This document shows, in pieces, positions 1 through 58,945 of a stretch of 64,000 bases of DNA. The notes beneath the pieces are model-generated. The model did no database searches and was not told where the DNA came from. It saw only the letters and a program-made list of their open reading frames with translations. The position numbers were made by a program, and so were the translations under genes. Source of the DNA: Octopus sinensis (taxonomy: Eukaryota); assembly GCF_006345805.1 (NCBI RefSeq), contig NC_043002.1, forward strand, positions 46,190,001 to 46,254,000. Reading direction: 5' to 3'. How positions within the stretch are numbered: position 1 is the first letter of the stretch; every line of letters begins with the position of its first letter.

Positions 1-1050
1 GGCACAGCTGTAACCAATGAGACACTACCTGGCACAGCTGTGACTGATGTGTGGCTACCTGGCACAGCTGTTACAGATGAGACACTATCTGGCACAGCTG
101 TGACAGAGACACTACTTGGCACAGCTGTTACTGATGTGATACTACCTGGTACAGCTATGACTGAAGAGACATTACCTGGCACAGCTGTAACTAATGAGAC
201 ACTACCTGGCACAACTGTAACTGATGAGATACTGCCTGGAATAGTTGTCACTGATGTGATGCTGCCTGGCACAGCTGTGACTGATGTAATACAACCTGGC
301 ACAGTTGTTACTAATGTGACAATACCTCGCACAAATGTGACTGATATGAAGCTACATGGTAGAGCTGTGACTGATGAGACACTATCTGGCATAGCTGTAA
401 CTGATCAGACACTACATGGCACAGCTGTTACTAATGAGACACTACCTGACACAGCTGTGACTGATGTAATACAACCTGGCACAGTTGTTACTAATGCGAC
501 AGTACCTCACACAAATATAACTGATATGAAGCTACATGGTAGAGCTGTGACTGATGAGACACTACCTGGCATAGCTGTAACTGATCAGACACTACTTGGC
601 ACAGCTGTTACAAATGAGACACTACCTGACACAGTTGTGACTGATGTAATACTACCTGGCACAGCTGTGACTGATGAGACACTACCTGGCATAGTTGTGA
701 CTGATGAAACACTACATGGCATAGCTGTTACTAATGAGACACTATCTGGCACAGCAGTTACAGATGTGATACTACCTGGTACAGCTGTGACTGATGAGAC
801 ACTACCTGGCATAGTTGTGACTGAGGAAACACCACATGACATAGCTGTGGCTGATGACACACTACCTGGCACAGCTGTTACTGATGTGATACTACCTGGC
901 ACAGCTGTGACTGATGAGACACTACCTGGCATAGTTGTGACTGAGGAAACACTACATGACATAGCTGTGGCTGATGACACACTACCTGGCACAGCTGTTA
1001 CTGATGAGACACTACCTGGCACATCTGTTGCTGATGAGATGCTATCTAGC
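1..1050 (+). repeat. Coding tandem repeat, 30-bp unit (GTAVTDETLP), with 180-bp and 120-bp higher-order copies
   Basis: ggcacagctgtgactgatgagacactacct recurs every 30 bp; 271-450 resembles 451-630, and 781-900 resembles 901-1020. Confidence 0.95.
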
Positions 1051-58000: not shown

Positions 58001-58945
58001 AGGGGACTATTAAATCTACTGATGCTTCTGTAACAGAAATACTCACTGTAACTTCTGAAGCTTCTACAAAAAGTAGCATTTTAGAATACTCCAGGGCAAC
58101 TTCAAAGATAATTTTCTCTTCAATTAAATTAACTGATTATTTGTCAGAATTTAATAAAACAACTCAGAGGCCTAGTAGAATAATATCCAGTGCATATTTA
58201 ACCACAGTTTCACCATTGTATGATCATTCTAGACAGAAAGTTAGGAGATATGATACACAAAGCCAAACCCAAAGGCTTAAAACCTTTGATTATCTTGTAT
58301 CATTTCAGAGTAGTTATAATACCACTGAACATTTTACTTCAAAAACAATACATAGCTTAAGAGATGAAAATTCTACTACTGCATCAGGTTCACATTTTAT
58401 TAGCCATTTGTTAGCAAGTACTTTATCAAAAACAAGATATGCCAAAACATCTCTACAACCTCGATTAAGTTCTGACACAAGATTATTGGAGTCAATCCAA
58501 AAATCAACAAAAATGCATTCAGAGAATGTTTCAGCGCTTTCTTCTGCAAGGCCTGTTCCTTCAGGTTCCAGTAGGACTAGAACTTTAGTGTCAATGCCAG
58601 AGAAAACCGTATCTTTTGATGTAAAACTTTTATTCAAAACAAAATTTGAAATCCCTGTATCAGAAAATCACACTTCCTCATTTACAAAAGGTTACAGTTC
58701 AGTGCAGCAAGAACACATCTCAGCTGATATCCTATATTCAAATACTATTGACTTGTTATCAACAACTGACAAAAATGTAACTGTTATACCGGTGTCTTTT
58801 ACAATAGATACTAGCTTGGAATCAGCAGTGACACCTACTGTTAGTCAACATATCACCATCGTTTCAGCAACTTCTAAACACTATAATATGACAACAAGTG
58901 GTAGTTATACACCAAAACTCACGACTCCATTTGTTAAAGAAACAG
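1..58945 (+). CDS. Giant internal coding exon (5' end lies outside the window) of a mucin-like Thr/Ser-rich repetitive glycoprotein, about 19,600 aa in this window once ~16 small indels are corrected
   Basis: Frame 1 is open from base 1 (GGC ACA GCT...; the GTG 'start' at 40 is internal). It has no stop for ~19.5 kb, and a second stop-free run covers ~32341-53098 in AT-rich DNA. At every ORF break the same peptide repeat resumes immediately in another frame. The protein is T/S/I/V/D/E-rich with abundant N-x-S/T. It ends at a consensus 5' splice site, after which the composition becomes intronic. Confidence 0.85.
1560..1830 (+). repeat. Degenerate 30-bp coding repeat (VSTDE-type 10-aa unit)
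   Basis: (c/t)(c/t)actga-like motif at 1571, 1601, 1631, 1661, 1691, 1721, 1751 and 1781. Confidence 0.75.
4250..10330 (+). repeat. Degenerate 45-bp coding repeat (DTVTVTSIPDHVTSG); best-conserved core about 8680-9640
   Basis: 15-aa periodicity is clear in the core (DTVTVTSVPVHITTG/DTETVTFIPDHIIYG/...). Decayed 'PEHVTS.D' echoes continue through the flanks and recur at about 12450-13100. Confidence 0.8.
14390..15235 (+). repeat. Second array of the 45-bp TSIPDHVTSGDTVTV repeat
   Basis: actgttacttctataccagaccatgtcacatctggagataca-like units, same family as 8680-9640. Confidence 0.9.
16430..17770 (+). repeat. Degenerate 15-aa repeat (HSEVLSTEKPDVSTV-like) leading into the acidic array
   Basis: Recurrent 'gatgtcagtact...agtgaagtactatctacagag' motifs. 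Confidence 0.75.
17770..23730 (+). repeat. 45-bp coding array (PDTEVQTTEIPDISM/T), with an 810-bp (18-unit) higher-order repeat x4 and a 540-bp duplication
   Basis: The marker 'tataaagg(a/c)attggatatcagtacgccaagcattgaaat' occurs at about 18551, 19361, 20170 and 20980. The marker 'agagacaagatatcagtacatcagac' occurs at 21661 and 22201. Confidence 0.95.
22586..30365 (+). repeat. Tandem segmental duplication, copy A (~7.8 kb)
   Basis: Near-identical to 30366-37970, including the non-repetitive part (e.g. the peptide MITAERDILSTKK...YIYVTAPS occurs in both). Confidence 0.95.
23730..26900 (+). repeat. 45-bp His/acidic array (HSEVQFTEGPDVSTI alternating with HSEVHSTDGPDVSTI); core about 24390-25830
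   Basis: catagtgaagtacagtttacagagggaccagatgtcagtactata and catagtgaagtacattctacagatggaccagatgtcagtactata alternate as a 90-bp dimer. Confidence 0.93.
30075..31500 (+). repeat. Hybrid 45-bp PDTEV/DIS array spanning the duplication junction
   Basis: 30075-30365 matches 37680-37970; from about 30366 it matches 22588 onward. Confidence 0.9.
30366..37970 (+). repeat. Tandem segmental duplication, copy B (~7.6 kb)
   Basis: Matches copy A apart from a 180-bp in-frame gap, at least one substitution (25830 G vs 33430 A) and small indels. Confidence 0.95.
31500..34500 (+). repeat. Second copy of the His/acidic 45-bp array; core about 32170-33430
   Basis: Same units as 24390-25830, four units shorter. 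Confidence 0.93.
37678..38505 (+). repeat. 45-bp PDTEV/DIS array with a 135-bp (3-unit) higher-order repeat
   Basis: gatatcagtatgccaagcaccaaagtacta occurs at 37681, 37816, 37951, 38086 and 38221. Confidence 0.93.
38520..43900 (+). other. Tyr/Ser/Thr/Ile-rich low-complexity coding domain with weak ~16-18 aa periodicity
   Basis: The translation is dense in Y (e.g. ISTIYVDIK...IKSIYSTIK...ISAIYHDVK...ISKIYSDIK). Confidence 0.65.
46870..50650 (+). repeat. 42-bp coding array (DIHTSMYPSNLSTS), about 90 units
   Basis: gacatacatacatcaatgtacccatccaatttgtcaacatca recurs every 42 bp. The variant unit 'tcagaaatacaaacctcaatg' occurs at 47191, 47737 and 48451 (13- and 17-unit spacings). Confidence 0.95.
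52250..56120 (+). repeat. 42-bp coding array (STYFPHTSMSPVDK/HDI), about 90 units, with 756-, 420- and 378-bp higher-order copies
   Basis: tcaacttactttccacacacatcaatgtctccagtggataaa recurs every 42 bp; 53121 resembles 53877; 54641 resembles 55061 and about 55439. Confidence 0.95.

Follow-up and report, generated by a model that had tools for sequence, protein, structure and literature searches.

Introduction

The NIDO, AMOP and VWD domains follow one another in this order in MUC4, the membrane mucin with which the gene analysed here is compared. In the human gene (PMC2360313), an exon for the signal peptide is accompanied by a single exon of at most 22 kb, made up of unique sequence and repeats, and by a region for the GDPH site, the EGF-like domains, the transmembrane helix and a short tail; the predicted contour length of its product is 2.12 micrometres. 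According to the accessible part of another paper (PMC4948705), whose authors refer to their own earlier study, Xenopus is the deepest animal with a Muc4-like protein, and the longest exons quoted in the available part of a third measure 17 kb in humans and 27.7 kb in Drosophila (PMC3563967). We analysed 64,000 nucleotides from Octopus sinensis (assembly GCF_006345805.1, contig NC_043002.1; G000:C6:46,190,001–46,254,000 of the 2.72-Gb genome), hereafter referred to as the window, in which a preliminary description had placed a single coding exon of at least 59 kb. The coding stretch was confirmed, but it is 112 kb long, starting about 53.5 kb upstream of base 1, and the window is its 3' half. 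This stretch is probably one 112-kb exon of a gene for a single-pass membrane mucin of the MUC4 type, with about 36,000–38,000 residues.

As in human MUC4 (PMC2360313, available portion), one huge Ser/Thr-rich exon of unique and repeat sequence appears to precede a module comprising GDPH, putative EGF-like domains, a transmembrane segment and a tail. However, the octopus exon, at 105–112 kb, would be about five times the size of that of MUC4 (at most 22 kb), and it contains many unrelated periods with modest Ser, Thr and Pro contents, rather than a single 48-bp unit. It would be about four times the size of the largest exon quoted (27.7 kb), and it would share with the spider silks a long single coding exon in a repetitive structural protein (PMC3563967, available part). 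In size class and in its fragmentation by automatic annotation, the gene resembles PKZILLA-1 from Prymnesium parvum (45,212 aa, 17 exons, about 25% larger than titin; bioRxiv 10.1101/2024.01.29.577497, available part), although the octopus product would be smaller, about the size of titin. PKZILLA-1 consists of folded enzyme domains distributed over 17 exons, whereas about 97% of the octopus protein is predicted to lie within one exon and to pass through the secretory pathway.

In the two public models found, both mucin-like, the exon is represented by a 3' fragment, and no description of the full 112-kb stretch was found in the literature searched, with subscription journals outside coverage. 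Our protein searches were limited by length, and a giant model may exist in a newer annotation. The available part of a study of octopus skin mucus names a mucin-4-like protein (PMC11431876). For a second study of this mucus, none of three mucin peptide motifs from the available part of the supplement (PMC10138644) occurred in any of the loci fetched, the window included, and none of three short peptides of the present gene was found in that part of the supplement.

Results and Discussion

Extent and ends of the coding stretch

We fetched 100 kb on each side of the window and used window coordinates throughout, with negative values upstream and values above 64,000 downstream. Six-frame translation showed three stop-free runs on the window strand, all in frame 1: positions 1–19,701 (6,567 codons), 32,332–53,268 (6,979 codons) and 54,613–59,004 (1,464 codons). 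The first of these runs is the window part of a longer frame that continues upstream to position −53,588, giving 24,430 codons (73.3 kb) without a stop. At the local base composition, for which one stop per 13 codons is expected, the chance probability of such a run is about 1e-840. The remaining five frames contain 808 to 2,633 stops each, and base use is strongly unequal between the codon positions.

The stretch also differs from its surroundings in repeat content. Tandem Repeats Finder (TRF) identified no array with a period of 6 or less in the 112.5-kb exon, versus 92 in 151.5 kb of flanks, and dinucleotide runs of at least eight units numbered 0 and 135, respectively. An origin from a transposon or satellite was ruled out by the single open frame, the codon-position bias and the linkage to domain exons. 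The opposite-strand open reading frames (ORFs) of the window were taken as shadows of repeats, and the search for tRNA genes found none.

At the 3' end, the frame reaches a donor (ACAG/GTAAG, phase 1) at position 58,945, and the sequence past 59 kb is a typical intron with microsatellites; this first downstream intron, of 6,432 nt, starts at position 58,946 and occupies the window to position 64,000. At the 5' end, a putative acceptor (pyrimidine tract plus CAG, phase 1) is located at position −53,539, and an in-frame ATG at position −53,564, 25 nt before this acceptor, provides an alternative start; with either of them, a signal-like hydrophobic stretch opens the giant frame. The distance between acceptor and donor is 112,485 nt as assembled (G000:C6:46,136,461–46,248,945), or about 104.7 kb without a tandem duplicate of 7.6–7.8 kb. 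The stretch is likely to be one spliced exon, with positions 1–58,945 (forward strand) as its share of the window, on the grounds of the open frame, the codon bias and the splice-site motifs, with the donor also backed by ortholog models. No recognised domain was found in the scanned parts of the exon. The predicted product has 35,800–38,400 aa and a mass of 4.0–4.3 MDa before glycosylation, so that the earlier figures of about 19,600 aa and 2 MDa were underestimates. Other features reported in the preliminary description for this region, namely two stop-free runs of about 20 kb, the donor at position 58,945 and the lack of microsatellites in contrast to the flanks, were recovered.

Frame breaks and the tandem duplicate

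Coding had also been described as continuous over positions 1–58,945. This holds as open reading, but the assembly does not present it as one frame: a greedy stop-free tiling takes 16 frame hops, all within 19.5–32.3 kb and 53.1–54.6 kb. Eleven of these hops fall in the tandem duplicate (positions 22,586–37,905, forward strand), in which the sequence at about 22.6–30.3 kb is repeated at 30.4–37.9 kb. The two copies differ by one substitution in about 7.5 kb, by 11 indels of 1–2 nt, which account for the 11 hops, and by one indel of 180 nt. The five hops outside the duplicate, at about 19.55, 53.1, 54.15, 54.4 and 54.6 kb, each correspond to a tandem unit that is one or two bases short (44 for 45; 41, 40, 124 and 125 for 42 or 126).

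Short-read contigs from four runs (X3, X4, X6 and X14) were aligned to positions 26,930–30,060, which contain five of the hops. X3 shares a sample code with the possible source and is not an independent animal, and X14 carries another species label. The missing letters were restored at all five breaks in X3 and X14, and at each of the four breaks covered in X4 and in X6. The broken form was absent from the listed contigs, although contigs can demonstrate that a sequence is present but not that it is missing. Long-read errors are the likely cause of the frame breaks, as had been suspected, since the five sites checked are intact in the short-read contigs and the duplicate copy contradicts all 11 of the breaks that it covers.

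Contig depth does not decide between a real duplicate and a misassembly. The 180-nt difference between the copies (24,396 / 32,176) amounts to exactly four 45-nt units, which fits either of two origins: the tandem assembly of two alleles that vary in repeat number, or a duplication that is real and recent. At position 29,927, both assembly copies and X4 have a T, and the contigs of X3, X6 and X14 have a C; this may be a heterozygous site, which matters for the question of a single-haplotype origin of the duplicate.

Orthologs and conservation of the frame

A downstream ORF matched XP_014785347.1 from Octopus bimaculoides, annotated as 'mucin-4-like' (P0001, 1,648 aa), and a 'mucin-like protein' from Argonauta hians (P0002, 1,586 aa). 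The first of these proteins maps colinearly over 65.4–95.3 kb, and the second over 65.4–104.4 kb. Both models have their FVKET–DKTFSS junction precisely at the 58,945 donor, and we consider both proteins to be orthologs of this gene on the basis of the colinear exons and the shared donor. Between the two orthologs, the C-terminal folded modules share 77% identity. Both models begin inside the giant exon, including only its last 910 residues (O. bimaculoides) or about 670 residues (Argonauta), which is less than 3% of the exon. Automated annotation had been expected to fragment the exon, and this is what these models show. The earlier term 'unrecognised' applies to all but the 3' end, which is already annotated as mucin-like or mucin-4-like.

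The 3' end of the exon covered by the ortholog models (positions 56,194–58,945, forward strand, by protein alignment) contains no stops and is 90% identical to the O. bimaculoides protein over 917 columns and 42% identical to the Argonauta protein over 618 columns. In these 618 columns the frame is open where about 16 stops would be expected under neutrality, a comparison biased in favour of openness because the models were chosen as open frames. A single 13,083-nt contig of X14 spans the stretch aligned above, differing at 123 letters and carrying 51 gap letters. Six of the gap letters repair the five breaks; the others form indels of 3, 15, 3 and 24 nt, so that each of the four indels in these 3.1 kb preserves the frame. 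Among the best-supported 40 of 168 X14 substitutions, 7 were synonymous, 33 were non-synonymous and none created a stop. These comparisons suggest that the frame is conserved while the residues drift.

The MUC4-type module

Each of the 11 downstream exons that we examined is bounded by AG and GT, lacks stops and keeps a consistent phase. On the forward strand, the NIDO domain is encoded by exons 65,378–65,493, 68,747–69,034 and 73,875–74,088 (ortholog mapping and Pfam), and is followed by an AMOP-like exon at 79,456–79,881, a Cys/Trp segment of fitting size. The VWD exons (ortholog mapping) are located at 81,843–82,021, 83,287–83,448 and 87,507–87,687, and the post-VWD and EGF-like exons at 88,851–89,005, 90,616–90,739, 92,521–92,850 and 95,092–95,268, with two further EGF-like exons near 96.2 and 96.6 kb, the ends of which were judged by eye. 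A hydrophobic transmembrane exon (about 101,106–101,194; 67% identity to the Argonauta segment) precedes tail exons near 101.8 kb and at 104.2–104.4 kb, the last of which contains the stop.

NIDO (PF06119) was recognised with an E value of 6.2e-12 in the genome's own exon and of 1.7e-25 in the O. bimaculoides ortholog, and VWD (PF00094) was found in the orthologs with E values of 3.3e-7 (O. bimaculoides) and 4.6e-9. GDPH opens the VWD domain in exon 81,843–82,021 and in the O. bimaculoides protein, and the corresponding motif in Argonauta is GDSH. The EGF-like assignment concerns Cys-rich exons at 95.1–96.6 kb, fragments of which gave Pfam EGF (E 0.002) and EGF_DL_JAG (E 0.013) matches, below the curated cut-offs. 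The Atlas leads for the AMOP-like segment (0.75–0.81), which include mucin-4 and mesh-like clusters, are below the reliable range, and a PDB sequence search with the Argonauta protein returned no match. The membrane-tethered, mucin-like reading of the preliminary description is supported by the NIDO, VWD with GDPH and transmembrane exons downstream; the inspection of flanking exons that it proposed gave these domains on the 3' side, but no accepted signal-peptide exon in the 46 kb searched upstream. We consider the gene to be MUC4-like in architecture; it may be an ortholog of vertebrate MUC4 or belong with proteins of the SUSD2/Mesh type.

Three other NIDO-like loci were identified in the genome (G000:C9:17,271,452–17,271,745; C4:77,609,757–77,610,008; C6:40,575–40,829). 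No long Ser/Thr-rich frame was seen in the 90, 59 and 40 kb examined upstream of them, which argues against a family of giant-exon paralogs. At the C4 locus, an unbroken alignment with the Argonauta C-terminal module extends over about 375 residues (L032:40–1080, minus strand) and includes one stop; this locus may be a retrocopy or a paralog with few introns.

In the first downstream intron, positions 61,537–62,777 contain fragmentary ORFs, four of which gave no Pfam match; by eye they resemble a Penelope-type reverse transcriptase.

Composition and repeat history of the exon

Classical mucin domains of the PTS type have about 40% Ser plus Thr and at least 5% Pro. The 24,430-codon frame contains 26% Ser plus Thr, 4% Pro, 51 Cys residues and 466 N-x-S/T sites. 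In the three stop-free runs, Ser plus Thr accounts for 26%, 30.5% and 32% of the residues, Pro for 4.0%, 5.4% and 7.1%, and hydrophobic residues for about 35%, with Ser and Thr the two commonest residues in each run; the richest 1,000-aa block of the first run reaches 34% Ser plus Thr. The classical composition was thus not found in any of the three runs, and we therefore file the protein as MUC4-like by its architecture, rather than as a classical PTS mucin.

TRF arrays cover only 26% of the exon, so a repeat unit that happens to lack stops does not account for the open frame. Within the window, on the forward strand, positions 1–1,082 are the end of a tandem array of 30-nt (10-aa) units that starts 1.2 kb upstream, and a decayed 10-aa period reaches back about 10.3 kb. 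Arrays of 45-nt (15-aa) units with unique spacers lie between positions 17,774 and 38,500 (17,774–23,743; 24,001–25,798; 30,072–33,398; 37,677–38,500; TRF and autocorrelation), and arrays of 42-nt (14-aa) units between positions 46,964 and 56,111 (46,964–50,654; 52,255–56,111), including the four frame hops at 53.1–54.6 kb. Autocorrelation revealed periods of 7, 12, 10, 15, 19 and 14 residues in successive regions, ranging from nearly erased to fresh, and no periodicity over most of the first 40 kb of the exon. The exon may have grown by successive tandem expansions of 7-, 10-, 12-, 14-, 15- and 19-residue units that later decayed, with selection purging stops, frameshifts and transposons and largely ignoring the identity of the residues.

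The N-terminal head and the upstream region

The first 1,000 aa or so of the exon are unlike the remainder, being basic, with 14% Ser plus Thr, 15 Cys residues and one R-x-K-R site. About 51.0–51.6 kb upstream of the window (L007:8422–9051), motifs that roughly follow the pattern hydrophobic-x-hydrophobic-x-Cys occur about every 20 residues and are followed by a very basic stretch; a genome search with this segment matched only the segment itself and identified no family. The N-terminal 900 aa had no homolog or family among all representatives, Atlas and Pfam (1,196 aa in one Pfam scan). Neither the N-terminal 500 aa, searched against protein targets of 876–2,500 residues, nor the translation of window positions 8,770–11,769, searched against targets of 550–1,750 residues, gave a match, and these length limits make both results weak evidence. 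Two N-terminal pieces, each modelled with AlphaFold from a single sequence, reached mean predicted local distance difference test scores (pLDDT) of 31.7 and 30.6.

The search for a signal-peptide exon yielded three weak motif candidates, none of which was accepted. Among 121 upstream ORFs, the only Pfam match was to a reverse transcriptase fragment (RVT_1, E 1.3e-9) about 89.9 kb upstream of the window (L010:136–1125). About 65 kb upstream (L008:4543–5755), non-coding DNA contains approximately three tandem copies of a 482-nt unit.

Alternative explanations

Several observations weigh against the reading of this locus as a membrane mucin with a single giant exon. The exon and its junctions are known here from DNA sequence, its 5' boundary is placed by a motif, and neither the 5' exon nor the promoter was found. 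None of the 24 runs listed for positions 39,000–47,000 is an RNA run, which says nothing either way about expression. The composition described above is weak for a classical mucin domain, and Pfam AMOP gave no match up to an E value of 10. The first copy of the duplicate might, though less probably, be genuinely degraded, and the five hops outside the duplicate are known from the assembly. Frame conservation between species was examined over about 6 kb of the 112 kb, and the dN/dS ratio for the best-supported 40 of the 168 substitutions, 1.4–2.0, was indistinguishable from neutral (p 0.28). Finally, the exon contains about 100 AATAAA motifs (9.0 per 10 kb) and strong splice-like motifs, which are not depleted relative to synonymous shuffles. 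These motifs would suit a region that is coding but never used whole, because of internal splicing (exitron-like or at alternative sites), internal starts or poly(A) sites, or because the exon is mostly skipped, giving shorter mucin isoforms. Skipping of a phase 1-1 exon preserves the frame, and a short human MUC4 isoform does skip the large symmetric exon. The public ortholog models also begin near the 3' end of the octopus exon. However, poly(A)-primed RNA-seq would be expected to yield models that start close to the 3' end when an exon is long, as illustrated by PKZILLA, for which coverage dropped beyond about 10 kb from the 3' end (bioRxiv 10.1101/2024.01.29.577497, available part). Furthermore, an intron that was always removed would gather stops, microsatellites and transposons like the flanks; since nothing across the 112 kb resembles the flanking introns, a constitutive internal intron is unlikely, and we regard the whole class of partial-use explanations as improbable.

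A real break at one of the five hops outside the duplicate would result in a truncated secreted protein (24,400 aa for the break at 19.55 kb) or would mark a decaying copy. The assembly itself carries these breaks, and residue identity is not conserved in the 40 substitutions just mentioned. Nevertheless, each break is a short tandem unit, an error of the type found at the 11 remaining sites, the frame continues intact after the breaks and is conserved in Argonauta, and the first 73 kb are unbroken, all of which makes this explanation very improbable. It is somewhat easier to imagine, though still doubtful, that the giant domain is a self-associating, beta-rich structural or adhesive matrix polypeptide on a MUC4-type anchor, rather than a glycan bottle-brush. 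The low Pro content, the many Ile, Val, Tyr and Phe residues, the acidic repeats, the spaced Cys motifs and the R-x-K-R site near the N-terminus would all be compatible with such a matrix, but the predominance of Ser and Thr in all three stop-free runs and the fit of the anchor module to the MUC4 layout speak for a mucin. This alternative concerns function only and is compatible with a single exon.

A model for the protein and its implications

We favour, with a little more reserve than the assignment to a MUC4-type exon itself, a model in which octopods splice a single coding exon of 105–112 kb into an mRNA of about 110–115 kb, encoding a titin-sized type I membrane protein of 4 MDa with an undescribed N-terminal head, the frame and length of which would be under selection while its residues drift. 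By analogy with the biology of MUC4, the hydrophobic N-terminus would take the protein into the endoplasmic reticulum (ER), self-cleavage at GDPH would yield a giant Ser/Thr-rich subunit and a membrane anchor, and the giant subunit would be O- and N-glycosylated. A very thick surface coat might then be formed or shed; if extended, the molecule would have a contour length of up to about 9–13 micrometres, as an upper bound. Such a protein would rank with the largest known polypeptides, and it might be the largest of all those that cross the ER.

The two ortholog models reveal a blind spot of annotation: as they keep less than 3% of the exon, a proteomic search built on models of this kind would overlook almost the entire protein. 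Provided that the exon is spliced in one piece, the ceiling for coding exons in print would move from about 20–30 kb to more than 100 kb, and one gene would be available for testing how splice sites 112 kb apart are paired while about 100 internal AATAAA motifs and cryptic splice sites are ignored. It would also become testable how the cell translates a chain of 36,000 residues, passes it into the ER and glycosylates it, and what keeps a frame open in a transposon-saturated genome although the identity of its residues is nearly free.

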